Notes under the pieces: model-generated
Databases searched by the model: none
The model's input: the letters and a program-made list of their open reading frames with translations, nothing else
What the model was told of the DNA's origin: nothing
Part shown: one piece after another, positions 1 through 23,064 of the stretch
How positions within the stretch are numbered: position 1 is the stretch's first letter
How the letters are laid out: every line of letters begins with the position of its first letter
Position numbers and translations under genes: made by a program
Assembly (NCBI GenBank): GCA_029858565.1
Contig: JAOUEV010000054.1
Coordinates: 1-23,064 of the forward strand
Reading direction: 5' to 3'
Length of the DNA stretch: 23,064 nt
Source of the DNA: Nitrospirota bacterium
GTDB lineage: Bacteria > Nitrospirota > UBA9217

Positions 1-235
1 TCACGTGATAAACGGCACCGGCATATTCTATGCGAAGAGGGCGGGACATGCGGAATGGATAGCAGAGAAATGGCTGAATTGCAACAAAAGAGACCTGTAG
101 GTTCCGCAAGATTCATCCGCATTGCGGGCTTCTTAACCAGAGGCTTTCAACTTAAATACGAATGAGTCGACTATTTTAGTGATATTTCAGTTGTTCACTA
201 AGCAGTTAGGTGGGTCCGACCCGGATATGTGCGCC

Positions 236-6982: not shown

Positions 6983-7411
6983 TTATATTCCCGACAAATA
7001 GTCCTTCAGGTGGTGAATCTCCGACTTCAGGTTTCCCACCTGCGTCTTTACCACGTCCCGGATCGAGAGCATGCCCGCGACCTTTCCCTGCTCCATCACC
7101 GGCATGTGGCGAATGCGCTTTTCGATCATGACGCTCATGACCGCGCAGAGGTCCTCCTCGGGCTCGGCCACGATCAGGTCAGCGGACATGGCCTGCTCCA
7201 GGAGGACCGTGCTGAATTGCTCCGGCCACCTGCGGTACGCCCGGAGGACGTCCCGCTCGGTGAAAATCCCGGCGGTCCGGGAATTCTTCCTGACCAGCAC
7301 GGCGCTGACATTCCGCTCGGTCATTGTCGCAATGGCCTTGTCCACGGTATCGCTCGCATCGAGGAAAATGGTCTCCCGTCCCTTTTCATCCAGCAGATCC
7401 TTTACCGTCAT
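6983..7411 (-). CDS. Stand-alone CBS-pair domain protein
   Basis: GIFTERDVLR, RIRHMPV, GMLSIRDVVK; GAGGAG RBS. Confidence 0.92.
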   Translation of the reverse strand: MTVKDLLDEKGRETIFLDASDTVDKAIATMTERNVSAVLVRKNSRTAGIFTERDVLRAYRRWPEQFSTVLLEQAMSADLIVAEPEEDLCAVMSVMIEKRIRHMPVMEQGKVAGMLSIRDVVKTQVGNLKSEIHHLKDYLSGI

Positions 7412-7782: not shown

Positions 7783-8295
7783 CTAATATGCCGCCCCGAA
7801 CTCGGCGATTTCCCGCGCAAACCGCTCCCGCTTCAGCGCCGATGCCTCGGCCGCGGACACCCAGCGCAGCGCGTGGGCCGTGCATTTGGTCACGCAGGCC
7901 GGTTTCAGCCCTTTGTCGACGCGGTCCTTGCAGTAGTCGCATTTGATCACCCTGCCCGTCTCGGGGTTCCACTGCGGCACGCCCCAGGGGCAGGCGGTGA
8001 TGCAGGACTTGCACCCCACGCAGAGCGGCTGCTCCACGAACACGATCCCGTCCTTCGTCCGTTTCTGCATGGCGCCGGTGGGGCAGGCGGAAACGCACCA
8101 GGGCTTCTCGCAGTGGAAGCAGGGCATGAAGACGAAATGCATGCGCGGGATCCCCCTGATCATCTTCGGGCCCACGGGCATGATCCTGCAGAACCGCGGG
8201 CCCACGGGCACGTTGTTCTTCGTTTTGCAGTGCACCTCGCAGGCATAGCACCCGATGCACCGTTTCTGGTCTTGATGGATGTAATAGATGCTCAT
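7783..8295 (-). CDS. Four-cluster FeS beta subunit of a DMSO-reductase-family enzyme (PsrB/PhsB-like)
   Basis: CIGCYACEVHC, CFHCEKPWCVSACP, CVGCKSCITACP, KCDYC..PACVTKC; AAGGAGG RBS. Confidence 0.93.
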   Translation of the reverse strand: MSIYYIHQDQKRCIGCYACEVHCKTKNNVPVGPRFCRIMPVGPKMIRGIPRMHFVFMPCFHCEKPWCVSACPTGAMQKRTKDGIVFVEQPLCVGCKSCITACPWGVPQWNPETGRVIKCDYCKDRVDKGLKPACVTKCTAHALRWVSAAEASALKRERFAREIAEFGAAY

Positions 8296-8307
8296 CGCGC
8301 TCCCTCC

Positions 8308-10392: not shown

Positions 10393-10420
10393 GGTTTCCT
10401 CCCGCATGGTCTCTTGCGAA

Positions 10421-10457
10421 GCTCCCCTCCCCCGGGCCGCAGCAGGGGGAGGGGGGC
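10421..10457. repeat. GC-rich intergenic hairpin without U-tract
   Basis: GCTCCCCTCCCCC (10421-10433) pairs with GGGGGAGGGGGGC (10445-10457). Confidence 0.65.
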
Positions 10458-10465
10458 GCTCCGGA

Positions 10466-10855
10466 TCAGTACACTCCCAGCAGGTTCAGGGCGAGAATGA
10501 CCAGCCCCGCCACGGCGACCCGCTTGACCGTCGTCGGGCTTATCCGCTTGGCGATCTGCGGGGCGATGTAGCCGCCGAGGATCGCCGCGGGAAACATGAT
10601 GAGGAAAAAGACCAGGTCGAAATTTCCGAACTGGTAGTGCCGCATCGTCCCCATGAGCGTGTTGAAGAAGATCGCGAGCAGCGAACTCCCGACCACCACG
10701 TACATGGGAAGTCCCAGCCCCACGGTCATGAGCGGCACCATGAACGGCCCGCCGCCGAACCCGAACATGGAAGAAACCACGGCGATGAGAAATCCGCCGA
10801 TGCATCCCAGAACAATATTGATTTTGAACTCGTGACCCCAGAAATGTACGATCAT
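10466..10855 (-). CDS. TauE/SafE-family transporter half-module (about 4 TM)
   Basis: SSMFGFGGGPFMVP, VVGSSL, ILGGYIAP; GGAGG RBS. Confidence 0.85.
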   Translation of the reverse strand: MIVHFWGHEFKINIVLGCIGGFLIAVVSSMFGFGGGPFMVPLMTVGLGLPMYVVVGSSLLAIFFNTLMGTMRHYQFGNFDLVFFLIMFPAAILGGYIAPQIAKRISPTTVKRVAVAGLVILALNLLGVY

Positions 10856-10890
10856 GGCATGCCTCCCTGCCTTCCGGTTGTAGGATTGCG

Positions 10891-12171
10891 TTAATTGCCT
10901 TTCTTCGCCTTTGCCGCGTCTTCGGCCTGCTTCTTGAACTGCTTCATGATGTCCTGCTCTTTCTTGTTCTTTTCGAGGTACCCCGGCGTCGTTTGCCAGA
11001 ACATCAGTCCCGCGAGCACGAGCAGGATCCAGCCGAAGACGAACTTGAACTGCGCCAGGGTGATCATCTCGGTCAGCTTCGGACCGATGAATCCGCCGGC
11101 CACCATGGCCAGGCCGATGGCAACGCCCAGCTTCCAGCTGATGAACTTGATCTTCGAGTAATTATAGATGCCGCTGCCCTGGGAAAAGAGCACCGTGGGC
11201 ATCACCGTCCCGGCGACCACGGTATGCGGCAGGGGCCAGATGGAAACGAGCAGGGGATTCATGATGAACCCGCCGCCTGCGCCCATCAGCACGCCGAAAA
11301 TCGCGATGGCGAGCGTCAGGAAGAACGGTCCGAACAGATTGACGCTCGTTCCCCCGTTGCTCAGGTAGACGAGGGGAAAGGCGATCCTGTTTTCGAACGT
11401 CACGGGCTGGCTTTTCGCGGTCTTGTCCACGGCCGCGACGATATTGTATTTGCCAGGCGCAAGGCCGGCGCGGATTTTTATTTCCGCCCGGTACGTCCCG
11501 TTGGGATGCATTTCCACGTCCGCGCTCATGACCTTGTCCACCGACCGGAAGCGGGCTTTCACGAGCTGCATGGACCGCTTTGCGTTTTCCTTCTCATCCA
11601 TGGAGGAAAGCGGGGCGCCGCGGGACCCGATGATGCTGCCCATGAGCGTTGCCTGGTACCGATCGACCGCCTTGGCGGCCGGCGCCGAGTAGACCGCGTC
11701 CGCGCCCACGTCCTTAAGCGCCTTGGAGAACGACCATTTGCCGCCTTCCTGCTTGATCTTGACGAGCGTTTCCTTGTGCTCCTTCGGCACGAACATCTTG
11801 TAATAGGCGGGCATGTCATGGGTCATATAGAGAATATAGGGCCGTTTTCCCGTATCTTTGTCCACGTCGGCATCGAACCGCGAGGCCCGCACCGTCTTTT
11901 CCGCCCACACTTCGAGGTAAACCGGCTTGCCCACCGGCGCGGTCCCCGTCACAACGATCGTTCCGCCGTTGTCTAAGGCGGTCTTGTCGATCTGCACTGT
12001 CGGCGCCGCTGCCGGCGGCTGGCTTTTTCCGGCCCCCTGCGCTGGCGATTGCACTCCGGCCTTTGGCGCAGGCGCATGCTGCGCCGGCTTTTCGGCAAAG
12101 GCGCCGTTTTGCCAAAGGATAACGAAAGCAGCGGTCATTGCAACAGCAAGAGACAACCAAGAACGTTTCAT
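10891..12171 (-). CDS. Signal peptide + large extracytoplasmic domain fused to a TauE/SafE half-module
   Basis: N-terminal signal ending AFA, Pro/Ala linker, soluble domain, then FGVLMGAGGGFIMNP, VAGTV, GGFIGPKLT; AAGGAGG RBS. Confidence 0.85.
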   Translation of the reverse strand: MKRSWLSLAVAMTAAFVILWQNGAFAEKPAQHAPAPKAGVQSPAQGAGKSQPPAAAPTVQIDKTALDNGGTIVVTGTAPVGKPVYLEVWAEKTVRASRFDADVDKDTGKRPYILYMTHDMPAYYKMFVPKEHKETLVKIKQEGGKWSFSKALKDVGADAVYSAPAAKAVDRYQATLMGSIIGSRGAPLSSMDEKENAKRSMQLVKARFRSVDKVMSADVEMHPNGTYRAEIKIRAGLAPGKYNIVAAVDKTAKSQPVTFENRIAFPLVYLSNGGTSVNLFGPFFLTLAIAIFGVLMGAGGGFIMNPLLVSIWPLPHTVVAGTVMPTVLFSQGSGIYNYSKIKFISWKLGVAIGLAMVAGGFIGPKLTEMITLAQFKFVFGWILLVLAGLMFWQTTPGYLEKNKKEQDIMKQFKKQAEDAAKAKKGN

Positions 12172-12253
12172 AAGGCTTCCTCCTTGCGCGCGATAGTGAA
12201 CATCGTTTTCTCCCCCCTGGTTAAGAAGTAAGTGAATTACCGGAATAGATTAA

Positions 12254-12270
12254 TGCAAAGGTTTTGCCGA
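12254..12270 (-). promoter_or_regulatory. Sigma-54 -24/-12 promoter
   Basis: Minus strand TCGGCAAAACCTTTGCA = GG-N10-GC with TTGCA; about 80 bp upstream of 12171, next to a GAFTGA activator gene. Confidence 0.85.
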
Positions 12271-12275
12271 TAACC

Positions 12276-12288
12276 CAATCTATTGATA
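12276..12288 (-). promoter_or_regulatory. IHF binding site
   Basis: Minus strand TATCAATAGATTG matches WATCAANNNNTTR exactly, between the UAS and -24. Confidence 0.7.
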
Positions 12289-12322
12289 AAGCGGAGTTTT
12301 GACAGGAGACTTGCCTGATGGG

Positions 12323-12383
12323 CGTTCCCGGAATGGAACAGAGCGAGGGGTTATTTTGCAGGACGTGTTCCCGGCAGGGAACA
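12323..12383. promoter_or_regulatory. Two palindromic upstream activator sequences (TGTTCC-N6-GGAACA)
   Basis: cGTTCCCGGAATGGAACA (12323-12340) and TGTTCCCGGCAGGGAACA (12366-12383), 43 bp apart. Confidence 0.8.
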
Positions 12384-12388
12384 ACGAA

Positions 12389-13747
12389 TCATTCGATTTG
12401 ATATTCCTTTATTTTCTTCCAGAGCACTTTCCTGGTAATGCCGAGGCGTTTTGCCGCGTCCATTTTTTTGCCTCCTGTTTCCTTCAAAGCCGCGATGATT
12501 TTCTGTTTCTCGAAGCACTTGATGCTGGAGTCGAGAGAAAGGTCCTCGGAAACGCACGGCATGGCCGCGGCCCCTCCCGCGACTTCCTCGGGAAGATGCT
12601 CGATGTTGATGACGCCGTTCTTCGCAAGGATAACCGCCCGCTCGATCGCGTGTTTCAGTTCCCGCACATTGCCGGAGTACCGGTGCGCAAGCAGTGCGTT
12701 GTACGCGGACACGGACAGGGACAGTCCGGCCTTGTCGTATTTCGTCCTGAAATTGGCAAGAAAATGATCGATCAGACAGGGGATGTCCTCCCCCCGGTCC
12801 TGCAGCGGCGGCAGCACAATGGGAACCACGTTGATCCGGTAGTAGAGATCTTCCCGGAATGTTCCTGCCGCGATGCGCTCCTTGAGGTTCTTGCTCGTGG
12901 CGAACAGGCCGCGCACATCCGCCTTGAGCGGAACGTTGCTTCCCAGGCGGGTTATGATGCCGTCCTCCAGCACCCGCAGCAGTTTCGGCTGGAGCGACAG
13001 AGGAATATCTCCGATTTCATCGAAAAAGATCGTCCCGCCGCCGGCATACTCGAACTTGCCCTTCCGTGCCTCCACGGCGCCCGTGAAAGCGCCCTTTTCA
13101 TAGCCGAAGAGTTCGGACTCGAAGAGGCTTTCCGGGATGGCCGCGCAGTTGATCTTGATGAACGGTTTCCCGGCACGGGGACTCAGCCGGTGAAGAGCGT
13201 TTGCCGCCAGTTCCTTGCCGGTGCCGCTCTCGCCCTGAATGAGCACGGGCACGTCCGTTCCCGCGACGGACCCAATGCGGCCGAACACGTCCTTCATCGC
13301 GGCGCTGATGCCGATGAAGTTCTCGAATTCCGTTTTCTCCCGCAGCGTCTCTTTCAGGAAGACTACTTCTTCTTCGAGCTTCCGGTAGTTGAAAAACCGT
13401 TCCACGGAGATCAGGAGCTCTTCATTGGAAAAGGGCTTGGCGAGATAATCGAACGCCCCGTTCTTGATGGCCTGGACCGCGGTCTTTATCTCCGCATGGC
13501 CGGTAATCATGATGACGCCGGGCGGGGGGGACCCGGCCCGCGCCTTTTCAAGGACCGCGAACCCGTCGGCGTGCGGAAGCTTCAGGTCCGTAATGACCAG
13601 ATCATACGCCGCGGTTTCCAGGGCATGCAGGCCCTCGCGGCCGTCGGCGCGCGCGTCGACCCCGTATCCCTGATAAGCGAGGAAATGGCTCATCCCCAGC
13701 CGCATGGTGGGATCATCTTCCACGATCAGAACGCGTTTTTTCGTCAT
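12389..13747 (-). CDS. Sigma-54-dependent NtrC-family response regulator (REC-AAA+-Fis HTH)
   Basis: VEDD, TDLKLP, GESGTGKE, ESELFGYEKGAFTGA, FFDEIG, FREDLYYRINV, GNVREL, AAKRLGITRKVLWKK. Confidence 0.96.
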   Translation of the reverse strand: MTKKRVLIVEDDPTMRLGMSHFLAYQGYGVDARADGREGLHALETAAYDLVITDLKLPHADGFAVLEKARAGSPPPGVIMITGHAEIKTAVQAIKNGAFDYLAKPFSNEELLISVERFFNYRKLEEEVVFLKETLREKTEFENFIGISAAMKDVFGRIGSVAGTDVPVLIQGESGTGKELAANALHRLSPRAGKPFIKINCAAIPESLFESELFGYEKGAFTGAVEARKGKFEYAGGGTIFFDEIGDIPLSLQPKLLRVLEDGIITRLGSNVPLKADVRGLFATSKNLKERIAAGTFREDLYYRINVVPIVLPPLQDRGEDIPCLIDHFLANFRTKYDKAGLSLSVSAYNALLAHRYSGNVRELKHAIERAVILAKNGVINIEHLPEEVAGGAAAMPCVSEDLSLDSSIKCFEKQKIIAALKETGGKKMDAAKRLGITRKVLWKKIKEYQIE

Positions 13748-15375
13748 AATAGCCGCAGATGCACGGTAAAGGTCGTCCCCGCTTCCGAGGTTTCCGCCGT
13801 GATCTCTCCTTTATGCTGCTCAATGATCGCCTTGCTCACCGAGAGTCCCAGGCCGGTCCCTTCGCCCGAGTCCTTGGTGGTGAAGAACGGGTCGAAGATC
13901 CGCGGCAGGACCTCGCGAGGGATCCCCTTGCCCGTGTCGGAGAGGGACACCCGGCACGTATTCCCCTCACAAGCCGTCCGAACGGTCAATATACCGCCGC
14001 CGTCCATGGCCTGGACCGCGTTGATGACCAGATTCAGAAAGACCTGTTCCAGTTTGCTTGCGTCAGCCGTAACTTCAGGCATGTCCGCGGCAAATTGCTC
14101 CTTGATCGAGATCCCTTTCTTCGCAACAGTGTATTCCGAAAGCCGCAGCACGTTGCTCAAAATAGCATGGATCGATGTCCGGGACATGCGCAGCTCCGAA
14201 TGCTTGGAATAATCGAGCAGCTGTTTTACGATGCGCTGGATCCTGTCGAAGCCGGACCTGATGACCTCGATATGCTGCCGCCGGGTGTCTTCGTCCATCT
14301 TCGTTTCGATCAGGTTGTTGAAGCACAGGCTGATCCCGCCCAGCGGATTGTTGATCTCATGGGCGACGCCCGCGGCTATCTGACCGAGCGCCGAGAGCCT
14401 GTCGAGCCGGAATTTCTCCCGGTTCGCCTCTTCAAGCTCCTGCAGGTTGTTCTTCAGGTCGCCGACCATCTGGTTGAAGACCTCGACCAGTTCCCCCACC
14501 TCGTCGCCGCACGACTCCCGGTAGATAATGCACTTCTTGCAATCACAGATCTTTTCGGCGATACCGCCCTGTTCGCAGCCGAAGCATTTAGTGCCCGGGA
14601 TCGTCCAGCACCGCGTTTTTCCGTATGCCGGGCAGTCCTGCCGGGCGCAGCGCAGGACTTCCCAGCAGTTCAGCAGGTGGTCATTGGGGACCGTTATATC
14701 GAGGTTCCCGGCCTGCACTTCCTCCATTTTCTCCTTCAGTTTTTTCATGGGGATGGTAAGCTGCCTCGCCAGGACCGTCGCGCTCCCGATGCCGACGACG
14801 ATGACAAACCCCGAAATGAGAAAGATGTACCGTTCAAGGTCCTGCATGTTCCTGGTTACGATCCCGTCCGTGCTGTCACGGGAAAAACCGGCGATGACTA
14901 TGCCGAGGACCTCATACCCGATCTGAACGGGAACGATGATCTTCTTGATCCCGTCCTGCTGGCCGTCGTCGATATGGGTTTCCCGTTCCGAAAGAACGCG
15001 CGTTGCCTGGTTTTGCAAGGCAGGCGAAATTGCCCTGCCGAGAAAGGTCCGCGCCGTATGGGCCACGATGCGCTTGTCCCTGTCGGCAACGAGTGCATAG
15101 CTGAGCCCCGACAGCTGCGCGGACGTCTGCACCAGTTCGTCGAGCTTGAGCGGATCCATCACAATAAGGGGCACCACCGCGTCGTTGGCGAGGTTTTTCG
15201 CGATGAAAAGCTGCTTATTCTCCAGTTCGGCCCTCAGAACGCCCTTCTGGTGGTTCACGATAAGCAGGTTCAGCGTCACCGTCATGATGATGATCAGGAA
15301 AATGACGCCGAGGGAAAATTTCCCGAAGATGCTCAGTTTTCGGAATATGGCGGATACCTGCTGTTTCATGATCAA
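13744..15375 (-). CDS. Membrane sensor histidine kinase with Cys-rich two-CW insertion in HAMP
   Basis: Two TMs; GVAHEINNPL, QVFLNLVINA, DTGKGI, FDPFFTTK, GTGLGL; 4-bp overlaps with both neighbours. Confidence 0.94.
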   Translation of the reverse strand: MIMKQQVSAIFRKLSIFGKFSLGVIFLIIIMTVTLNLLIVNHQKGVLRAELENKQLFIAKNLANDAVVPLIVMDPLKLDELVQTSAQLSGLSYALVADRDKRIVAHTARTFLGRAISPALQNQATRVLSERETHIDDGQQDGIKKIIVPVQIGYEVLGIVIAGFSRDSTDGIVTRNMQDLERYIFLISGFVIVVGIGSATVLARQLTIPMKKLKEKMEEVQAGNLDITVPNDHLLNCWEVLRCARQDCPAYGKTRCWTIPGTKCFGCEQGGIAEKICDCKKCIIYRESCGDEVGELVEVFNQMVGDLKNNLQELEEANREKFRLDRLSALGQIAAGVAHEINNPLGGISLCFNNLIETKMDEDTRRQHIEVIRSGFDRIQRIVKQLLDYSKHSELRMSRTSIHAILSNVLRLSEYTVAKKGISIKEQFAADMPEVTADASKLEQVFLNLVINAVQAMDGGGILTVRTACEGNTCRVSLSDTGKGIPREVLPRIFDPFFTTKDSGEGTGLGLSVSKAIIEQHKGEITAETSEAGTTFTVHLRLL

Positions 15376-17045
15376 TATTGCCGGAGCCCCTCGAACTCAG
15401 CGTCACTGCTTGCCCGAAATCCCCGGATTTTAGCGGCCCCCAGGACGTTCCGGTCGTTCAAATCAACGAGCAGCCGCGCGACCTTTTTCACCAAAGAGGG
15501 ATTGGTCTTGCCGCAGAGCGAAAAAGGCCAGTTCGGGAGCGACTGGGTGCGGGTCAGAACCCGGATCTGCCGCATATCGATCTCGCCCTTCAGCACTTCG
15601 AGCGCCGATTCCCTGACGAAACCCGCGTCCGCCTGGCCCTTATAAACGCCGAGGATGACGTTTTCCTGCCTCTTCGCCTCCCGGACCATCAAGTCCCGCT
15701 CAACGGAGATTCCCCTCTGTTGCAAGAAGAGCTTCTGCGAAAGGTACCCCCCCGCGGATTTCGCAGAGACGACCAGGACGTTTTTCCCCCGCAGGTCCTC
15801 GACGGTCCTGATCTTGCTGTCGGCCCGCGTGATGATAACCCCGCGAAACCTGTCGCCTGCCGCTCCCTCGCCGGCAGTCGCCCCTTCCTCCCCGATCGTC
15901 GTCACGAGCGGCGTGAGACGCACGGTCCGGTCGATCAGCGAAAACACGTAGGGATTCTGGTAGGAAAAGTTCACGTTTCCCTTCTTTACCACCTCCACGA
16001 ATTCCTCGAAGTCCCGGGGGATGACGAGCTTGAATTCATACCCGGTTTTCCGAGAAAGGTACCGCATGAGCGGATCATACCGTTCGAAGAGGGTAATGGC
16101 GGAATACAAGGGGAGGATGGCGACTTTGATCGTATTCGGTCCGTACTCGATGTAGTTCTTCCCCGAGAGGTTCTTGATCATGACCCTGACGGCGTCGAAG
16201 TCCCTGTCCTGGGCAGGCGTAAAACGCCCGATCTGCCCGTCTTTCGTCCGTTCCCGGTCCGGCGCGTCCGGGGGGGCAACGAGACCGCGAACGATCAATT
16301 CGCGCGTCGCGGGACTCAGGTCGCGGGACGCGCACAGCACGAGCCGGGAAATTTCCTCGGATTTTTTCAAGACGGTCAGGCCGTCCGCCAGATATTTCTC
16401 CGCCACCAGCTGGCTCAAAGCGCCGGCGTCATGATCGCCGATCAGCACGGAAAGCGCCACGCTGTCTTCCTGCTGAAAGTGATCGACCGCGGCGAAGTCC
16501 TCGGCGCCGATGCCGACGTCCTTGAGCATTGCAAGAGGCGCCAGGTGGCCGAAGGTGGAACGCTGATGGCCGAAGGCGATGCGCTTCCCCTTCAGCTCAA
16601 CGATTTTTTCCATGCCCCTGTCCTGCTTGACGATGAGCACGCTGCGGGACAGCTCGCCCTCCTGTTTCGCCGTTTTGACGAGAGGGATGACCTTCTCTCC
16701 GTAGCGGGCCCGCGCCTCGCAATAGGTGGAGGGATCGAGGCAGGCGATGTGGATCTGGCCGTTCCCGATCTCACGAATGATGGTATCGTAGTCCTTGGCG
16801 ATTTTAATCGTAACGCGTCTCTTTAGCGTATGCTCGAGGGAATACTTCAGCGGCAGCAATCGCCCGTACAGGCTGGCGGCGCTTTCTGCGGGAATGATGG
16901 ATATCCGTAACGCCGGCCCAGCTGAGATGCCGGACAGGTCCTGCTGATCATTCTTCGGAGGAGGGAGAGAAGGTGCGGCAGTATTCTGGCAGGAACAAGA
17001 AAGCAACGCGCCGAACAGAACAAAGGATATGAGTTTTTTTCGCAT
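15372..17045 (-). CDS. Lipoprotein with two tandem PhnD-like (phosphate/phosphonate-type) substrate-binding domains
   Basis: Lipobox LLSC; duplicated motifs LKGKRIAFGHQRSTFGHLAP / LRGKNVLVVSAKSAGGYLSQ and VALSVLIGDHDAG / VILGVYKGQADAG. Confidence 0.88.
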   Translation of the reverse strand: MRKKLISFVLFGALLSCSCQNTAAPSLPPPKNDQQDLSGISAGPALRISIIPAESAASLYGRLLPLKYSLEHTLKRRVTIKIAKDYDTIIREIGNGQIHIACLDPSTYCEARARYGEKVIPLVKTAKQEGELSRSVLIVKQDRGMEKIVELKGKRIAFGHQRSTFGHLAPLAMLKDVGIGAEDFAAVDHFQQEDSVALSVLIGDHDAGALSQLVAEKYLADGLTVLKKSEEISRLVLCASRDLSPATRELIVRGLVAPPDAPDRERTKDGQIGRFTPAQDRDFDAVRVMIKNLSGKNYIEYGPNTIKVAILPLYSAITLFERYDPLMRYLSRKTGYEFKLVIPRDFEEFVEVVKKGNVNFSYQNPYVFSLIDRTVRLTPLVTTIGEEGATAGEGAAGDRFRGVIITRADSKIRTVEDLRGKNVLVVSAKSAGGYLSQKLFLQQRGISVERDLMVREAKRQENVILGVYKGQADAGFVRESALEVLKGEIDMRQIRVLTRTQSLPNWPFSLCGKTNPSLVKKVARLLVDLNDRNVLGAAKIRGFRASSDAEFEGLRQY

Positions 17046-17047
17046 AA

Positions 17048-17281
17048 TCAGAAAGAAAAGCGGAGTGTTCGGTTCACTATTGCTGCCGGCTGTTCCCGGA
17101 TATATATTAGCAAGTCAATCCACTGAAATCCATCCTCTTTTTTCGCCGTTTCCCGCAAGGGCGCCATGAGTCTGATGCAGCTCATGCCCCGGACCGCCTC
17201 GGACCTGAATGTATAGTACGCCGCTCCGGCCAGCTTGTGAGCGAGTGCGTTGTGCGCGGCCATGAAGCTGGTCTTCTGCAT
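17048..17281 (-). CDS. Possible small leaderless ORF (77 aa) upstream of the sensor operon
   Basis: ATG 6 nt after an extended -10 TGcTATAAT; stop 2 bp before the next start; no recognised domain. Confidence 0.3.
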   Translation of the reverse strand: MQKTSFMAAHNALAHKLAGAAYYTFRSEAVRGMSCIRLMAPLRETAKKEDGFQWIDLLIYIREQPAAIVNRTLRFSF

Positions 17282-17287
17282 TTTGCG

Positions 17288-17316
17288 ATTATAGCATGCC
17301 CGTGCCTGTTTGTAAC
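17288..17316 (-). promoter_or_regulatory. Sigma-70 extended -10 promoter for the sensor operon
   Basis: Minus strand GTTACA-N17-TATAAT with TGn extension. Confidence 0.55.
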
Positions 17317-17514
17317 TGCGTCGAGCATCAGGCAGGGTTCGGCCGCCTCGGTGCCTTCATATGATTATCAGGCCTACGTTCATGCCATGTGGCAACCAAG
17401 GAGATTGCCCCCATGGTTCCCGGTGGGTGACAGAGGAGAATCAAAGGAAAAAGCCCGGGACTCTTTTTGTTGAGAACACAAGCCGTCTCCGCGGCTGCTC
17501 CAGAGTCTACCAGT

Positions 17515-17530
17515 AAAGAACTGACCCTAT
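17515..17530 (+). repeat. Dispersed REP-like motif, copy 1
   Basis: AAAGAACTGACCCTAT; similar to copies at 19504, 20155, 20991 and 22726. Confidence 0.55.
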
Positions 17531-17547
17531 TTGTTCTTTCGTCGGTC

Positions 17548-18084
17548 TTACGGCGTACGCTCCTGCTTCGACAGCCGCAGGACCATGCCGTCGCCGAACG
17601 TGATATCGTCGATATGCACCGCTGCCTTGCTTCCACGCGAGACCACGTGGATATGGATGAAGTTCTGCATGCCCGAGTCTTCACTGATCGCCGGAGCATA
17701 CTGGCTGATGAACTCGCCGGGATGACTCTCGGCATGGAAGCCGACGATATCGACCGGCTCGTTCTTCATCACATAGCCCTGCTTGGACTTGCGGAACAAT
17801 TCCTTGGTGATGGTTTTTCCCTCGGTCCGGTTCACGTTGATATGCCATTTGATCTCGGCCGGCGTTCCGGTCATCAGGAACGGAAACGGCTTGGCCACGT
17901 CGATTCCCGCCTTCTGCGCCTGCTCCTTGACAAACTTCCGCAGGTCCACGTAGGTCTTTACCGTCGCGGGAACCGGCACGTCCTGCCAGGCCGACTGTTC
18001 GGTCCATACCAGGAAGATCGCATTGTGCTTGAGCGTCGTATCCACGGTAAAATCTTCGCCCCGCACCTTGCTGATTTGGATTAC
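17548..18084 (-). pseudogene. Alpha-acetolactate-decarboxylase-like protein, apparently 5'-truncated
   Basis: PFPFLMTG, IVGFHAESHPGEF, HIH-x10-HIDD metal motif; frame starts mid-domain (IQISKVRG) without RBS or ATG. Confidence 0.6.
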
Positions 18085-18111
18085 GGTATGAGTCGGGTAC
18101 TGCAGGACGTG

Positions 18112-18441
18112 TCAGGCTGAGGGCGGCTTCAGTATCTCTGCGGGATGCGCTTCCGCGAAATGAACGGCCAGGAACGACGCAAGCGCCTTTACCGCAGACA
18201 CCTGGATGCCGGGGCAAAGTCTCGCCGCGGTAAAGAGGAATTGCGGAAAACGGTGTGTAGTTGAACCGGAAAGCATGGGCCCCGGTGCCGTCGGCACGGG
18301 GCGGTGGCAGAGGCGCCTGAGCGGACAACCTTCGCACTTCGAAACCACGCTCGACTTACCGGCCGCCCCGAAGGGGCAGGTATTCTGGAGCATGAGCGAA
18401 AGAGCAAGACAGCAGGCGATAAACAGCAGCACTCGCTTCAT
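18112..18441 (-). CDS. Small exported Cys-containing protein (signal, CxxC, C-terminal PP), DUF2946/CutF-like architecture
   Basis: MKRVLLFIACCLALSLMLQNTCP signal-like start, KCEGCPL, terminal LKPPSA; promoter directly upstream. Confidence 0.6.
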   Translation of the reverse strand: MKRVLLFIACCLALSLMLQNTCPFGAAGKSSVVSKCEGCPLRRLCHRPVPTAPGPMLSGSTTHRFPQFLFTAARLCPGIQVSAVKALASFLAVHFAEAHPAEILKPPSA

Positions 18442-18448
18442 GCGTCAG

Positions 18449-18477
18449 ACTATAAGTCCGGCCTGAACAGGCGTCAA
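18449..18477 (-). promoter_or_regulatory. Sigma-70 promoter giving a leaderless transcript
   Basis: Minus strand TTGACG-N17-TATAGT-N7-ATG. Confidence 0.7.
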
Positions 18478-18628
18478 GGCTTGTATTCGATCTTACGTTG
18501 CATGCATTCCGTTGTGTAACCGTGAGTTGTCTTGGTCCGGCACGGCTGTGTTATGAGACCGCACAGTCCAGCATTCAATACCTGATAATCATATAAAGGG
18601 CACCTCCCCGTTCGTTTCGGGAAACCCC

Positions 18629-18659
18629 TTGACCTGTCTACAGCTTCATAGTTTAGAGT
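18629..18659 (+). promoter_or_regulatory. MerR-type promoter with 19-bp spacer
   Basis: TTGACC-N19-TAGAGT upstream of the MerR-family start; weak dyad in the spacer. Confidence 0.6.
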
Positions 18660-18684
18660 ATACTCGTGAGAAGGGAGGTGAACC

Positions 18685-18879
18685 ATGTACACCGTGGGCA
18701 GCCTGGCCAGGTCCTTTGGTCTTTCCCGCAGCACCCTGCTGTACTACGATTCCATCGGACTGTGCAAGCCCTCAGGCAGGAGCGCTGCCAATTACCGGAC
18801 CTACACCGAGAACGACCGGGCGCGTTGCCGTTGCTGCACTCGGGATCGAACGAAGCCGGATCAACGCCATTCTCAATGA
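18685..18879 (+). pseudogene. MerR-family regulator, N-terminal HTH only (truncated after about 47 aa)
   Basis: MYTVGSLARSFGLSRSTLLYYDSIGL.KPSGRSAANYRTY; strong GGAGGTG RBS; similarity lost near 18825, no effector domain. Confidence 0.8.
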
Positions 18880-19375
18880 CCTGGAGCGCCACCTGACATT
18901 CCTGTACCGCCACAAGAACGGCAGGGTCGCCTGGGCCTACCCGGTGACGGTGGACGAAACGCCCCACCGGCTTAAGTTCAGTGCCGGCGAGGAGGTGTAC
19001 GCTGCCTGAGCAGCGGATGCCTTTGCCACGCCCTTCGTGCAAGGGCGCTTACGCAATGAAACCCTGAGCGTCAGGGTCAAAAGCTCCTGCGCTCACTGCG
19101 GTAAACCGATCGAGCTCACCATCGACAGCGACCTGAACTGCACAGTCCATGATCCGGAGGCTCGTCCCCTCGTGTTCGTGCCTGACGTGGACCTGCTCAC
19201 GCTGCGCGAAGAGAATATCATCAATGCATTTTGAAGAAAGACCGTATTCTTCTGTTCAGAAGAATGCGCAAGAGAATACAGAAAAAAGGGTCATACGACA
19301 AGGGGCATCTATTTGTTGCCTGAGGAGATGAAGGCGATCAAGGTGATGCAGAGCGTCCTGTTCGGTTTCGAGTAA
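18824..19375 (+). CDS. merB: MerB-like organometallic lyase with two in-frame UGA (putative selenocysteines); 5' end appears missing
   Basis: One frame: ..WAYPVTVDETPHRL..VYAA(UGA 19007)AADA..SSCAHCGKPIEL..IINAF(UGA 19232)RKTVFFCSEECAREY..FGFE TAA 19375; UGAs match MerB YAWCAxD and SFCxxVHFF cysteines. Confidence 0.8.
19029..19047 (+). promoter_or_regulatory. SECIS-like hairpin for UGA 19007-19009
   Basis: CGCCCTT-cgtgc-AAGGGCG, perfect 7-bp stem, G at loop position 2. Confidence 0.6.
19243..19268 (+). promoter_or_regulatory. SECIS-like hairpin for UGA 19232-19234
   Basis: CGTATTCTTCT-gttc-AGAAGAATGCG, 11-bp stem with one GU; loop starts with G about 20 nt after UGA. Confidence 0.65.
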
Positions 19376-19443
19376 TGCGAGACTCCGGTTTGTTGACAAA
19401 CTCGCTTCGGAGCGGGTCGTGGGGAGATGAGGGAGTTGTAAAG

Positions 19444-19475
19444 ATAAAGGCCCGGGATATTTCCGGGCCTTTATT
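19444..19475. terminator. Bidirectional terminator between converging genes
   Basis: ATAAAGGCCCGG-gatattt-CCGGGCCTTTAT; lies after TAA 19375, consistent with the read-through gene end. Confidence 0.8.
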
Positions 19476-19503
19476 GTTGAGAAAACATGTGTTGTCAAGC
19501 CGC

Positions 19504-19518
19504 AAGACCTAACCCTAT
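19504..19518 (+). repeat. Dispersed REP-like motif, copy 2
   Basis: AAGACCTAACCCTAT. Confidence 0.5.
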
Positions 19519-19588
19519 TTGTTTTGTAACGGATGCGCCGGTGTCCGTGAAAACAGATGAACGCCGAGACTTGCTGCGCGACGCCTCG

Positions 19589-19909
19589 TTATTCACCGTA
19601 CACAGTAACCGTGTATTTGCCAAAGAGCGCAAGGCAGGAGAAGCTCGAATTATCAACATGGTGGATCTTCGTTATCTTGGCGGCGCTGGCGATCGTGTTG
19701 ATGCTGCAATCGCCGATCGCCAGCAGGCCGAGGATCGAGGTGCAGGAACCGCTCCCGGATTTGGTCGAGACCGCATTTGACGTTGCGGATCCGGCCCAAT
19801 CAACATTGGTGTAGAGACCGCCGGCCACCGGCGATGCAACAATGCTACAACCCGACAACAGCACAACCGCTACCGCGACAACTGCCAGAACTGCGATGAT
19901 CCTTTTCAT
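19589..19909 (-). CDS. TRL-like family lipoprotein
   Basis: Lipobox LSGC; GGLYTNV, KSGSGSCTSILGLLAIGDCSI, ITKIHHVD, TVYGE; AAAGGAG RBS. Confidence 0.88.
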   Translation of the reverse strand: MKRIIAVLAVVAVAVVLLSGCSIVASPVAGGLYTNVDWAGSATSNAVSTKSGSGSCTSILGLLAIGDCSINTIASAAKITKIHHVDNSSFSCLALFGKYTVTVYGE

Positions 19910-19975
19910 ACGCTTTCTCCTTTGCTGGTTTCATGATGATCCGGCTCCGGCCGGGTCCGTCTGGAATGTCGATCA

Positions 19976-20004
19976 AGGATATACATTTTTCCGAACATTG
20001 TCAA
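19976..20004 (-). promoter_or_regulatory. Sigma-70 promoter of the TRL-like gene
   Basis: Minus strand TTGACA-N17-TATCCT. Confidence 0.65.
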
Positions 20005-20032
20005 GCTGATGACAATCGGCTGATGACAATCG
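20005..20032. repeat. 14-bp tandem duplication abutting the -35 box
   Basis: GCTGATGACAATCG x2; also forms inverted ATTGTCA-N6-TGACAAT over the -35. Confidence 0.8.
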
Positions 20033-20154
20033 GTCCAGAGTCAGAAAAAACTCCCCGGCAGGGGCCTTGTCGCCTCCCTGAGATCGGGCGCTCCTCACAG
20101 CGACATCATTCTCCCCTGACCGGTTCGGGAAAACATACCGGGCACCAGGTCTCC

Positions 20155-20170
20155 AAGAGCTGACCCTATG
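20155..20170 (+). repeat. Dispersed REP-like motif, copy 3
   Basis: AAGAGCTGACCCTATG. Confidence 0.55.
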
Positions 20171-20196
20171 AGGTTCCCTTCAATACCCGCCCGAGG

Positions 20197-20748
20197 TCAC
20201 AGGTTCCGGGCAACCGCTTCCGCAAGAACGATGATGTCCTCACTGCAAAAGATTCCCGTAACGTTCCGGTCGAACAGAAGGTTAGCGTCCGGTCCGAATT
20301 CGTCGTCTGCCGTCCAAAGCTCGATCAATGCAGGTACGCCTTCGAACACCTCGACAACGATCGCCGCATCCGCCTGGACAAGCTTCCTGCCGGGCGCTCT
20401 TTCCAAAACACGGTAGATGCCCTGGGGATCGCAACCGTACTTGTCGACCAGGACCGCGATAGCCTGCTTCTTGAACGCATTATCAAAGCCCGTTGCCACG
20501 GAAAGTTCGCTCAGACTGAGCCACGCCCCGGTCTGCGGCGGCAAGCCTGACGCTCTGCGGGCAAGGTAGTGGAGGATCAACAGGCCAAGCCCGTCCTCGG
20601 CCGAAGCTCCTGTTGACGGGTTCACGATGCTCCTGGTATCGAGATCGACCAGGTACTCGTGGGAAAGAAAACGAACAGACAGCCTTTTCAGCGGGTTTGA
20701 TTCGCCGAGAAGGTCCCATGCTTTCTTGAGTGCCGCTTCAGGGTTCAT
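20197..20748 (-). CDS. DUF3786-family protein
   Basis: LLILHYL, WLSLSEL, ELWTADDEFGPDANLLFD, SEDI; preceded by ATGACG-N17-TAGTAT-N6-ATG (leaderless geometry). Confidence 0.85.
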   Translation of the reverse strand: MNPEAALKKAWDLLGESNPLKRLSVRFLSHEYLVDLDTRSIVNPSTGASAEDGLGLLILHYLARRASGLPPQTGAWLSLSELSVATGFDNAFKKQAIAVLVDKYGCDPQGIYRVLERAPGRKLVQADAAIVVEVFEGVPALIELWTADDEFGPDANLLFDRNVTGIFCSEDIIVLAEAVARNL

Positions 20749-20874
20749 GTCGTCATACTACACTATTTCAAGGTGTACGTCATGGAATGCGATCCGGAGC
20801 AGTTCGAGCACGGGAACGGAGAGTACGAATGCGAGCACTACGGTAAGCGGCGCGGTGGTTTCCGGTGAAAAAAG

Positions 20875-20901
20875 AAAAGCCCGAAACAGTCTCGGGCTTT
20901 T
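20875..20901 (-). terminator. Intrinsic terminator with no obvious upstream gene
   Basis: AAAAGCCCGA-aacagtc-TCGGGCTTTT; long U-tract on the minus strand. Confidence 0.7.
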
Positions 20902-20975
20902 ACTGCATCTACCTCAAATATCAATATGTAAGCCTGCCCCGCGACCGTCCCTCCGAAAATGAGTGCCCCCATAGG

Positions 20976-21004
20976 GCCGACACCAATTCAATAGACGTGA
21001 CCCC
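20976..21004 (+). repeat. REP-like/RAYT-end sequence, inverted copy of 22730-22761
   Basis: GCCGACACCAATTCAATAGACGTGACCCC vs minus-strand GTCAACACCAATACAATAGACCTG(TATG)ACCC. Confidence 0.7.
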
Positions 21005-21103
21005 AAGAAGTTGAAGAGTGAACAGGATAAAAATAGTACAATGTATGCGAAACAATCTGCACGATAAGCGGCAGGAACGATGATAGATAGTTCTGGGAAA
21101 TAT

Positions 21104-21132
21104 TTGACATTGAGTATAATTTATAGTAGTCT
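21104..21132 (+). promoter_or_regulatory. Sigma-70 promoter in AT-rich region
   Basis: TTGACA-N17-TAGTCT. Confidence 0.55.
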
Positions 21133-21336
21133 CTTCTCAATATAGTTTGTATTCCGTTTTTGCTGCATCACTCGCCTGCTGATTAGTGTCGCGCTTCATT
21201 TTGTAGATAAAGATTTAAAGTTCTTCATTATGCATATATGTGCATGCGCTCATGTACGGAGGCGACGTGAGCGGTAATGCGCCCTGCAGTCTGCCCGAAA
21301 ACAACGGTAATGGTCACGAAAAAAAAGGAGGAAAAC

Positions 21337-22176
21337 ATGAACACGTTGACATCCCGTTTTTTAGCGCTTGTATGCATTGTGATTTTCAGTGTTTCTCACG
21401 CATGGGCCAAGGATACGCTCGTTATGGGCGTTCATCCGTATAAGCCGGCTACGGAACTTTATAAGATATTCAAGCCCATTGCGGATTATCTTTCGCAAAA
21501 AACGGGCAAAACGGTTGATCTCCAGATCGCGCAGTCCTACGAAGACGCGGCGGAAAAGGCGGGAAACGGAAAGTTTGACTTATCCTATATGGGCCCTACG
21601 GTCTATGCAAAGGAGAGTAAACACCTGCAGCTCAAACCGCTCGTCCAGATCATAAACAATGGTAAGCCGTCATTCCACGGCGTCATCATCGTCAAACAGG
21701 GAAGCGGACTGAAATCACTCAAGCAGCTCAAGGGAAAGTCGTTCGTGTTCGGCGAAAAGAACTCCACGCTTACTCATGTGGTGCCCCTCTATCTGCTCCT
21801 CAATGAAGGCATTCACCTGCGGGATCTCACAAAGCATGCATTCGTGGGAAGCCATGACAACGTGGCGCTTAATGTCAAGACCGGCTCGTTCGATGCGGGC
21901 GGGCTTATGCCCGATATCGCGGAAAAGTACAAGGATCAGGGGATCGAAATAATAGCGAAATCTCCCGAACTTCCCGAGCATGTTTTCGTTGCGACCAAAT
22001 CCATGGATGCGGCGACCTTCAACAGGATTCAGGAAACGCTCCTAACCATGGACCTGGCTACTCTCAAGGGAATCAAACCTACCCTTACCGGAACTCAAAA
22101 AGTGAATGACAAGGATTTCGATATCCTTCGGACCATCATGCAGATGGTGGAAAAGGAAATGGATCGGAAAGACTGA
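21337..22176 (+). CDS. Solo PhnD-like periplasmic substrate-binding protein
   Basis: Signal ending AWA; KPIADYLSQKTG, FHGVIIVK, LKGKSFVFGEKNSTLTHVVP, GSHDNVALNVKTGSFDAG; start moved to ATG 21337 after AAGGAGG. Confidence 0.9.
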   Translation: MNTLTSRFLALVCIVIFSVSHAWAKDTLVMGVHPYKPATELYKIFKPIADYLSQKTGKTVDLQIAQSYEDAAEKAGNGKFDLSYMGPTVYAKESKHLQLKPLVQIINNGKPSFHGVIIVKQGSGLKSLKQLKGKSFVFGEKNSTLTHVVPLYLLLNEGIHLRDLTKHAFVGSHDNVALNVKTGSFDAGGLMPDIAEKYKDQGIEIIAKSPELPEHVFVATKSMDAATFNRIQETLLTMDLATLKGIKPTLTGTQKVNDKDFDILRTIMQMVEKEMDRKD

Positions 22177-22276
22177 CAGGACTTCTGCTGAACAGTCAGT
22201 CCTGCAGCGAGGATGCCGAACGAACCAATCCTGTCCCAGGGTCGCACCGCAGCATGTGGGACGTTGTTACGAAACC

Positions 22277-22305
22277 ATGACATTCCCATCGTGGTTTGCT
22301 ATCCT
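22277..22305 (+). promoter_or_regulatory. Extended -10 promoter giving a leaderless transposase mRNA
   Basis: ATGACA-N17-TATCCT (TGn extension)-N6-ATG. Confidence 0.6.
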
Positions 22306-22311
22306 CGCCCC

Positions 22312-22704
22312 ATGCCCCGCAAGCCCCGCATCGAATTCGCCGGCGCCTTCTACCACGTCATCGTCCGCGGCAACCAGAAACAGCGCGTATTCAAGGATGC
22401 TGCGGATTTCCAGAAGTACCTCCTCACCCTCACCGTGTACAAGAACCGCGCCGGCTGCCGCATCTACGCCTATGTCCTCATGAACAACCATGTCCATCTG
22501 CTGGTCGAGACCCAGGACGTCCCCTTGTCAAAAGTCATGCAGGGCGTGAATCAGACCTATACCATGTATTTCAACCGGAAATACCGCACTGTTGGCCATC
22601 TTTTCCAGGGGCGCTACAAAGCGATTCTCTGTGATCGAGACGCCTATCTCCTCGGGCTCGTCAAATATATTCACGAGAATCCCCTCCGCGCCAGAACTAC
22701 ATAG
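22312..22704 (+). mobile_element. rayT: REP-associated tyrosine transposase (Y1/HUH), C-terminally truncated
   Basis: MPRKPR..YHVIVRGN, AYVLMNNHVHLL (HUH), GHLFQGRYKA, KYIHENP; stops abruptly at the TACATAG repeats. Confidence 0.88.
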
Positions 22705-22761
22705 TACATAGTAGTACATAGAGTACATAGGGTCATACAGGTCTATTGTATTGGTGTTGAC
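22698..22761. repeat. Stuttered TACATAG repeats plus REP-like end at the junction of two RAYT genes
   Basis: TACATAG-TACATAG-TAG-TACATAG-AG-TACATAG-GGTCA-TACA-GGTCTATTGTATTGGTGTTGAC. Confidence 0.8.
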
Positions 22762-23064
22762 TGCTCTTTCTCATAATATTGCACACCGTTGAGACGTGCA
22801 GGTCGAGATGACGGGCGATCTCGCTCTGGCGGTACCCGTGCTGCGTAACAGCCTCGGCGATCTTCTTGTCGCGTCTGCCGGTATCGTCAAGAACACGCTG
22901 AGGGAAGATCGCATCGAGTGTTGGCCTGTTGGCGAAGCGCTGGCTTTTGGGGATCTCGGGGATGTGGTGCCGTTTATGGAGATGGTCCGCGTGGCTGTCA
23001 ATAAATTCGTCATCACCAAGGAGAATCTGGCCTTTGACATCCGTCCAGATGGTTTCCTTGTTGA
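22733..23064 (-). mobile_element. rayT: 3' end of a second RAYT-type transposase with C-terminal HTH (partial, runs off window; absent from ORF track)
   Basis: Open frame from 23062: ..IWTDVKGQILLGDDEFI..EIPKSQRFANRPTL..RDKKIAEAVTQHGYRQSEIARHLDLHVSTVCNIM..RPV-TGA. Confidence 0.75.

Follow-up and report, generated by a model that had tools for sequence, protein, structure and literature searches.

The names TIRtron and TIRYT were coined by Di Nocera et al. in 2013 for elements, and the transposases they encode, whose terminal inverted repeats (TIRs) have the common motif GGGGWSAS and occur single, in dimers or in clusters (accessible part of PMC3733652). In the accessible part of Quentin et al. 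(2018), Y1 proteins with a C-terminal HTH_23, HTH_28 or Bac_DnaA_C domain make up TnpA_REP subclass 2.1, whose genes lack flanking repetitive extragenic palindromic (REP) sequences and which includes 20 of 26 ‘TIRYT’ examples (PMC6006769). The available portions of these two papers make no mention of gene capture, of co-oriented runs of solo repeats or of targeting by IS110 elements, and they report no biochemical activity for the TIRYT class. Here we describe a locus of this kind on a 23,064-bp contig (C138; other C numbers denote further contigs of the same genome), which in its entirety is the window analyzed and which comes from a Nitrospirota genome bin of 3.9 Mb, 144 contigs and 57% GC. 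The locus is a further example of an already described class, and its enzyme type was previously in print. Like published TIRtrons, it combines a Y1 HUH nuclease bearing a C-terminal helix-turn-helix (HTH) domain with non-palindromic flanking TIRs that contain a GGGGWSAS-type motif and with extra repeat copies that are single, paired or grouped. It differs in that the elements are multi-copy and diverged, with members on at least 15 contigs, in that a 13-mer of the repeat is common to 16 of 19 genera, in the co-oriented runs of solo copies between accessory genes, and in the targeting of the repeat by IS110 elements. The two TIRYT copies at the right end of the window each show one end only; paired ends are seen on C51 and C120.

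A second comparison is with the REPtrons, in which a RAYT nuclease is associated with REPs, REPINs or BIMEs, reportedly described by Nunvar in 2010, Bertels and Rainey in 2011 and Ton-Hoang in 2012. The likeness lies in a related Y1 nuclease whose gene is bracketed by inverted short repeats that are also found between genes, often after gene 3′ ends. The present repeat differs in having no hairpin, no GTAG head in the window copies, and a copy number in the tens instead of the hundreds. The nuclease gene is multi-copy here, whereas that of REPtrons is single-copy and domesticated (available text of PMC5581495); REPs, too, are targets of IS110-type elements (available text of PMC1525189 and PMC11208160).

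The likeness to integrons consists of unrelated small accessory genes (toxin–antitoxin genes in related arrays), a recurring short site and strain-variable content. The site found here has no attC-like fold, however, and the genes lie in both orientations, at irregular spacing, with promoters of their own and with pseudogenes among them; the integron-like order envisaged in the original prediction is thus not seen. No IntI-type recombinase was present among the 12 open reading frames (ORFs) of 15.4–23.06 kb that the Pfam scan covered. In ISEcp1 and in IS91/ISCR elements, one-ended or alternative-end mobilization of adjacent genes gives rise to nested units with one common end. To our knowledge, this is the only type of route that moves a single end together with neighboring DNA, and we know of nothing comparable shown for Y1 enzymes; ISEcp1 has a DDE enzyme and IS91/ISCR are Y2 HUH rolling-circle elements, both unlike the Y1 TIRYT. 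TIRYTs are a large and widespread class of HUH nucleases, for which this locus provides a sharply defined and highly conserved 13-nucleotide (nt) end sequence and, together with its relatives, natural strain differences that break at that sequence and an IS110 family that targets it.

The structure of the repeat is as follows. Across the genome, the core GACCTGACCCT has TGNCAA-N7 before it, and outward-facing inverted copies flank RAYT-like genes, both in this genome and in its family, and the motif is indeed a RAYT end motif. In the TIR, the core GACCTGACCCTAT is followed, going inward, by N7 and TGNCAA; taken from the terminus inward, the repeat reads ATAGGGTCAGGTC-N7-TTGNCA, with the motif as the outermost 13–15 nt of about 24–40 bp. 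In copies of this genome the 5′ side of the gene reads AGGGTCAGGTC-N7-TTGNCA-N17-TATNNT-ATG, so that the repeat holds the TIRYT gene’s own −35 element. The reverse complement of the motif is (A/G)GGGTCA(G/C). GGGGWSAS is matched exactly in window copy 4 (GGGGTCAC) and in the copy at 5585 of C118 (GGGGTCAG), and most copies agree with it at seven of eight positions (AGGGTCAG). When the repeat was folded by itself, the two folds gave z-scores of +0.49 and −0.07. Neither a GTAG nor a CGTC head was found in the window copies, whose heads read TAAAGAAC, GCAAGACC, CCAAGAGC and AATAGACG. Because the motif is of the GGGGWSAS type and the repeat does not fold, the latter is assigned to TIRtron TIRs and not to REPs: judged by its sequence, the motif is the outer end of a TIRtron terminal inverted repeat and not a REP hairpin. 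The REP nature first attributed to it is therefore abandoned, with z about 0 and an enzyme of the already described TIRYT class.

The complete element is seen on C51, where copies at 46165(−) and 47084(+) enclose a gene at 46218–47069 that encodes 283 amino acids (aa); such a TIRYT-encoding unit measures about 0.93 kb. C120 carries a miniature element without a gene, made up of two copies at a distance of 180 nt. The full C51 protein contains Y1_Tnp and a C-terminal HTH_23, the latter just below the Pfam gathering cut-off. It exceeds the cut-off of NCBIfam REP_Tyr_transpos (89.1 bits against 80). The NCBIfam transpos_IS200 score stays below its cut-off (19.9 bits against 55), and the ends of the element are inverted repeats, unlike those of IS200/IS605. 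By tblastn, RAYT-like genes or fragments on the 15 or more contigs are 47–79% identical to the N-terminal fragment of the window; apparently full TIRYT ORFs number five of 283–325 aa, and a further copy, on C66, has 282 aa and is divergent in its C-terminus. A second TIRYT subfamily (C123, C44) is flanked by an inverted repeat of a different type, GGGACGTTGTTAC.

In the window, the 14-mer AGANCTGACCCTAT occurs on the plus strand at 17517–17530 (0 mismatches), 19505–19518 (one) and 20156–20169 (0). Allowing two mismatches, these three matches compare with 0.30 expected, and none of 100 shuffles gave three. The exact 14-mer has two matches across the 3.9-Mb genome, both inside the window; with at most one mismatch there are 12 matches, three of them in the window, and repeat matches genome-wide number 18–29. 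Copy 4, at 20993, has three mismatches to the 14-mer and is not significant on that count alone. It is nevertheless a true family member, because its context at 20976–21013 is 94.7% identical to C14 over 38 nt and 93.8% identical to C118 over 32 nt. The motif that had been placed at 17515, 19504, 20155 and 20991 (+) and at 22726 (−) is thus real and non-random, and its first three copies do lie just beyond the 3′ ends of minus-strand genes, with 18, 70 and 27 nt separating them from the stops of the ORFs at 17548, 19589 and 20197. A first repeat profile was built with the four copies of the window itself, so that its scores for those copies are circular. In a second profile, into which only copy 2 (19480–19518) can have entered from the window, nhmmer gave E-values at window size of 0.2–0.4 for copies 1, 3 and 4 and of 0.005 for copy 5. 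The window copies represent different TIR subtypes and are, therefore, not one recent series.

The two RAYT pieces at the right end of the window are different genes, not one gene. The plus-strand fragment matches Pfam Y1_Tnp with E 3.9e-16 and REP_Tyr_transpos with 62.1 bits, below the cut-off of 80, and the 3′ repeat of an inverted second element sits 22 nt past its stop. This repeat, copy 5, carries a 3-nt insertion, TAT (GACCTGTATGACCCT). The overlap with a RAYT stop that had been described for it holds for the minus-strand C-terminal fragment (ORF 22733–23062) and not for the plus-strand fragment, whose stop is at 22702–22704. The minus-strand TIRYT looks multi-copy, because its summed contig depth is 57–80 in the likely source run against 14 for the remainder.

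Several smaller observations concern the same repeats. Contig C118 (7,365 bp) is laid out like the window, with a RAYT fragment at 5–91(−), a RAYT C-terminal fragment at 7271–7363(−), repeat copies at 135(+), 3259(+), 5585(+) and 7241(−), and unrelated ORFs between them, including a highly repetitive one of 421 aa. Tandem repeats of 7–10 nt adjoin the outer ends of TIRs also on C72 (2610–2637 and 7303–7330) and at locus L030 (about 310–352 and 4405–4426; L numbers denote loci in family genomes, G numbers the genomes), and in the window and L030 the tandem unit includes the TIR-terminal ATAG(G). Such repeats might have been left at the terminus by recurrent cutting and rejoining, or might reflect a general habit of 7-nt repetition in this genome. 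At L033 (G046:C8), positions 2785–2928, a 115-bp tandem duplication of the 5′ repeat, the promoter and the first 18 TIRYT codons precedes a full copy, and at L026 an unrelated gene of 386 aa comes after the repeat and the first 51 TIRYT codons. Series of truncations that retain the TIRYT 5′ end appear to be common.

The repeat is widespread in the family, for which we compared 64 genomes of 19 genera; these genomes are related, so that the following counts are not independent. The 24-nt pattern AGGGTCAGGTC-N7-TTGNCA has 97 places in 28 of the 64 genomes, against one control place, and the 13-mer AGACCTGACCCTA has 149 places in 41 genomes and 16 genera, against four control places. From the 13-mer list, 35 neighbor pairs lie within 10 kb on one contig, 19 co-oriented and 16 opposite. 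The opposite pairs comprise eight (−,+) pairs 905–919 nt apart, which are complete elements, four (−,+) pairs 68–180 nt apart, which are miniature elements, and four others. At least some of the co-oriented pairs are accounted for by tandem duplication or by whole elements in the same orientation; in the G014 run, a DsbA-like gene has been tandemly triplicated together with the TIRtron’s own 5′ repeat, and the G061 pair is two whole TIRtrons. Replication-strand bias is an unlikely cause of the co-orientation, since both orientations occur within 20 kb on a 1.7-Mb contig of G008.

As in the window, repeat copies stand between accessory genes in G051, G008, G014, G060, G067 and G072, where the surrounding genes are of the PIN, DUF5615, HAD, MscS, Fic, RhuM, HsdM, DsbA-like, IS66 and IS110 types. 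Between G050 and G008, segments with 88–96% DNA identity, one of them encoding a protein that is 98.9% identical, appear in different order and end 6–16 nt from the outer edges of repeats. Counting the ends of all cross-genome alignments that reach 150 nt or more, 14 of 96 fall no more than 20 nt from the outer edge of a repeat; 2000 random trials averaged 1.5 and never exceeded 8. Once the six that are simply the trivial end of the C72 element are set aside, 8 of 90 remain. In G051, a 615-nt unit of repeat plus resident gene occurs two to three times with 95–99% identity. This unit was rejected as a repeat-bounded cargo element, the gene being a resident single-copy gene in the three sister genomes G049, G050 and G012, and it may be a plain duplication. 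At L037 and L038 (G050 and G049), the left flank of a small conserved gene has the GGGGACGTTGATGC repeat type where G051 has the GACCTGACCCT type, which suggests that different TIR types may turn over at one site.

Strain differences at the locus come from contigs of three other metagenomes, X2–X4, since the genomes of the same genus are 73–81% identical, either lack the modules or carry them on different contigs, and are too distant for an exact comparison of boundaries. These contigs hold parts of 18620–21012 at about 88–100% identity. A 494-nt contig of X3 joins 19472 to 20199 with 67 letters between, so that the TRL gene is absent there; its MerB part has 39 differences in 317 nt (88% identity), and its DUF3786 part has 0 in 110 nt. 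In contigs of X2 and X4, position 21012, at which copy 4 has its outer edge, is connected to 19446, and the letters between resemble the start of the unit at 19405–19518. The edge of copy 3 is where homology in X2 begins (20154) and where contigs of X3 diverge (20153); after 21012, contigs of all three metagenomes diverge. The joints rest on short contigs placed at 88% likeness, in three cases with a shorter side below 35 nt (25–33 nt), and contigs tend to end at repeats anyway. No depth from X2–X4 was seen over 17595–18470, over most of PhnD or, in all three, over 21099–21536 (to about 21975 in most bins), where the sequence may be filtered or absent. The idea that modules are gained and lost at the motif is accordingly upheld as regards breakpoints, which lie at or near it in X2–X4 and across genera, and not as regards the agent: movement of a non-RAYT gene by the HUH enzyme is shown in none of our results.

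We propose, with a probability of roughly 0.6, that the solo TIRtron ends stem from repeated insertion, followed by deletion or recombination initiated at element ends, within an accessory island. TIRtrons and their miniature derivatives would have landed repeatedly in the island; deletion or recombination from the element ends, carried out by the enzyme or by host recombination, would then have removed transposase genes and adjoining DNA; and solo ends would have remained exactly at the seams between unrelated segments. The four plus-strand copies of the window are solo repeats, and two further copies were split by IS110 elements that inserted after CCTGA and have since decayed. Such a history would account for the breaks of strain differences at the motif. 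Given the mixed orientation of the genes, their own promoters and the diverged copies, debris of insertion and deletion fits better than a dedicated capture system. Four points weigh against this proposal. First, no recognizable TIRYT remnant lies beside the solo ends, the tblastn matches in the window being only 22312–22701 and 22736–23062, so that a deletion origin of these ends is an inference. Second, the X3 joint of MerB and DUF3786 and the cross-genus shuffles at repeat edges look like active exchange at the motif. Third, copies 2 and 3 have about 13 of 15 core bases in common, too little for ordinary homologous recombination to explain the gain or loss of TRL. Fourth, when complete and miniature elements are left out, 19 co-oriented pairs face four opposite ones, which random debris does not predict.

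The breakpoints leave it possible, though doubtful, that TIRYT cuts out, copies and inserts units of repeat plus neighbor gene by using single or alternative repeats, or by insertion beside a repeat already in place, giving directional arrays beside the TIRtron and an integron-like, HUH-based gene pool. Directional arrays do recur: four plus-strand copies stand in a row in the window, three precede the minus-strand copy on C118, and seven (+) copies are followed by five (−) copies in G051; moreover, two units of DsbA-like gene plus repeat adjoin the TIRtron in G014, and the 615-nt unit of G051 likewise pairs a repeat with a gene. The 19 to 4 excess of co-oriented pairs agrees with such a mechanism, as do the skipping of TRL in X3, the 19405–19518 unit after copy 4 in X2 and X4, the breaks at 20153/20154 and 21012, and the reordered segments and alignment ends near outer edges across genera. 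On the other hand, no array unit of the window is duplicated elsewhere in the genome, the orientation of genes relative to the repeat is inconsistent both within and between arrays, several modules are pseudogenes, modules have their own promoters, and the window copies are of differing subtypes. The G014 and G051 cases are equally explicable as tandem duplication, every end of a mobile element is a homology breakpoint by definition, and the metagenome joints have the limits given above. In this reading and in that of insertion and deletion debris alike, what cuts, and at which site, is inferred. Were the enzyme to move repeat-plus-gene units, this would be a new gene-shuffling mechanism in uncultivated sediment bacteria; if it does not, the locus is still a clear case of element ends becoming the seams of an accessory island.

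A broader version, in which the end-repeat is a recombination site where single accessory genes are excised, exchanged across strains and genera and stacked in one direction beside the TIRtron, and which is a landing pad for RNA-guided IS110 elements as well, seems to us unlikely. If it held, cassette-like gene pools could also be built by HUH enzymes, as a second route, and TIRYTs would be not merely selfish.

It is quite improbable that the solo copies are kept as cis elements of the host, either as a portable −35 element or promoter or as an operator bound by the TIRYT HTH, and regulate their neighbors. In its favor, TTGACA-like hexamers in the inner part of the repeat act as −35 elements for TIRYT genes; TRL, DUF3786 and ORF109 each have a repeat in the same orientation 130–245 nt upstream (copy 3, copy 4 or the half-copy at 18573); and four copies at L032 of G008 lie 46–270 nt upstream of co-oriented ORFs. 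Nevertheless, TRL and ORF109 have closer promoter-like sites of their own, no solo copy falls on any of the seven promoter-like sites that the scan reported, DUF3786 is separated from copy 4 by a terminator-like hairpin, the genes on the inner side are convergent in the arrays L026, L027 and L028, and the strain-level breakpoints would remain unexplained.

Least probable is that part of the apparent array is a product of assembly, with short shared repeats having joined DNA that was not adjacent in one cell: independent contigs from the likely source run are interrupted at 20983–21012 and have loose ends that lead elsewhere at 20981, 21012 and 22738–22740, and both ends of the window contig stop within TIRYT copies, but one source-run contig spans 16500–21012 unbroken with one differing letter, so that copies 1–4 are truly linked, and a second spans 20983–22790 with even depth across the join (14.4 and 14.1), copy 4 being the only join that relies on a 30-nt overlap.

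The IS110 elements bear on the debris reading through the two split copies. A 28-mer at 18580–18607, with an inverted partner at 17350–17376, recurs in several genera with 100% conservation. It forms the left end of a 1,524-bp element of the IS110 family in G014 (L014, 968–2491; limits from two G014 copies), whose transposase has DEDD and Transposase_20 domains (Pfam); both G014 copies end in ..GACCC, and in G019 the 28-mer is found at contig ends. Two other readings of the 28-mer and its partner, as the ends of a 1.2-kb element or as the start of a ‘MIIR’ gene, were rejected in favor of the IS110 left end. At 10 of the 13 junctions read, this left end stands directly after ..CCTGA, the first half of the motif, and IS110 elements therefore insert into the TIRtron repeat; the target writes as AAGANCTGA|CCC. 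Both IS110 copies of the window are wrecks, with 22–27 nt of the left end remaining. The transposase remnant at 17201–17326, the only IS110 trace in the genome, is 67% identical by tblastn to aa 287–328 of the G014 transposase. The window debris fits the IS110 family in the domains of the intact relative and in site-specific insertion into a repeat, and it keeps only aa 287–328 and two left ends. That IS110-type elements target REPs is known (available text of PMC1525189, PMC11208160 and PMC11187229).

Read outward, the IS110 left end contains GGAGGTG-N8-ATG. At about 17362–17513(+) this opens a 50-codon frame, MIIRPTF..., whose stop abuts copy 1, and at the 18594 copy it gives MIIRY-stop only; the frame is probably a chance one. 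A quick look at the 3′ non-coding region of the G014 element, not a test, found motif-like strings such as AAGAACTGAC, which, on sequence grounds, might serve as guide in a bridge or seek RNA.

The features of the locus are collected in Table 1.

Table 1. Repeats, TIRYT pieces, IS110 remains and genes in the window (positions in the 23,064-bp contig).
Feature	Positions	Strand	Basis or remark
TIRYT N-terminus, ~16 aa (MSRPLRIEYAGAVYHV), running off contig start	1–48	−	Same N-terminus as full copies
5′ TIR of contig-start TIRYT	64–97	+	nhmmer E 0.14 at window size; diverges after GACCTG
Double PhnD-like binding protein, final gene of block syntenic with G009	15372–17045	−	Pfam
Decayed IS110: transposase C-terminal remnant (17201–17326) and left-end remnant (17350–17376)	17201–17376	−	
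Half TIR copy (..GCCTGA)	17372–17390	−	Cut by IS110 left end; junction type as at other junctions read
~115-nt non-coding unit ending in TIR copy 1 (core 17516–17530)	17412–17530	+	
Acetolactate decarboxylase fragment, aa 87–256 of ~257	17566–18075 (ORF 17548–18066)	−	
Half TIR copy CATTCAATACCTGA fused to 22-nt IS110 left-end remnant	18573–18607 (half-copy 18573–18586)	+	
Broken MerR (64-aa HTH only) and MerB-like pieces in several frames	18685–19376	+	Pfam MerR
~115-nt unit with hairpin 19444–19470, ending in TIR copy 2 (core 19504–19518)	19405–19518	+	
TRL-family gene	19589–19909	−	Pfam; own promoter-like site 20004–19976
TIR copy 3 (core 20155–20169)	20140–20169	+	14-mer match, nhmmer
DUF3786 gene	20197–20748	−	Pfam; rare accessory
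TIR copy 4 (GACGTGACCCC; reverse complement GGGGTCAC, exact GGGGWSAS fit)	20971–21013	+	
PhnD-like binding protein	21277–22176	+	Pfam; GC 0.49, upstream 0.45
Second TIR type GGGACGTTGTTAC	22256–22268	+	Upstream of plus-strand RAYT fragment
TIRYT N-terminal 130 aa, HUH motif (HVH) and Tyr region (KYIHENP), C-terminal half absent	22312–22704	+	
Short tandem repeats (TAGTACATAG x3) against TIR outer end	22698–22730	.	
TIR copy 5, 3′ TIR of minus-strand TIRYT	22727–22770	−	94% to C120 over 50 nt
TIRYT C-terminal 109 aa (HTH), running off contig end	22736–23064	−	HTH_23 (just below Pfam gathering cut-off); 93.5% to C95 copy

The genes between the repeats form a 6-kb accessory island in which intact rare genes (TRL, DUF3786, PhnD) stand alongside broken ones. 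The region is regarded as an accessory island, partly decaying, because synteny ends before it, DUF3786 is rare, GC is low and genes are broken. Synteny with G009 covers 7783–16901 of the window and is lost at 16901–17045, where the double PhnD gene starts. Beyond that point G009 carries other genes, nif genes among them, and homologues of its right flank sit mid-contig elsewhere in the present genome, so that the size of an insertion cannot be set. TRL, DUF3786 and PhnD appear intact by Pfam. DUF3786 is present in one of 63 other family genomes, with 34% identity, and a protein search of metagenome contigs gave no confirmed relative among 230 pattern matches. GC is 0.45–0.49 around PhnD against 0.60 in the core. 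The acetolactate decarboxylase piece is the C-terminal two thirds of the protein, the N-terminal part not being present; MerB is indicated by weak NCBIfam MerB_rel_SaoL matches on two ORFs, split across frames, and other metagenomes have additional sequence at 18824–18839 in the MerR/MerB region. No module of the window recurs elsewhere in its own genome, and one window gene has its nearest named relatives in Nitrospiraceae.

These results qualify two statements of the original prediction. The repeat copies do lie between unrelated accessory genes beyond the synteny, but three of the ‘modules’ are pseudogene debris. The statement that each module has its own promoter is correct for ORF109/acetolactate decarboxylase, MerR, TRL and the RAYT fragment, for which a scan reporting seven promoter-like sites found them; the scan found none for DUF3786 or PhnD.

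Some sequences outside the genes deserve mention. The units at 17412–17530 and 19405–19518, which end in copies 1 and 2, have in common GAGGAG..AAAG..GCCCGGG..TTGTTGAGAA(A)ACA, and the second folds strongly (z −3.7), owing to its hairpin. An Rfam scan of 16.5–23.06 kb gave two sub-threshold matches only, STnc390 and Trp leader, which are taken as chance. Upstream of TRL, within 20005–20033 and 20069–20083, stands an exact 14-nt tandem duplicate (GCTGATGACAATCG x2); one X3 contig skips 20011–20106 in the same upstream region, and GTCGCCTCCCTGAGA also stands directly after a repeat copy of C118 (3270). Finally, the plus frame of 17150–17215 reads GAMSLMQLMPRTASDL, which we take to be a fragment resembling the active site of a lytic transglycosylase (SLT). 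About 70 nt here are some 80% conserved in many relatives, and the piece is probably a gene remnant.

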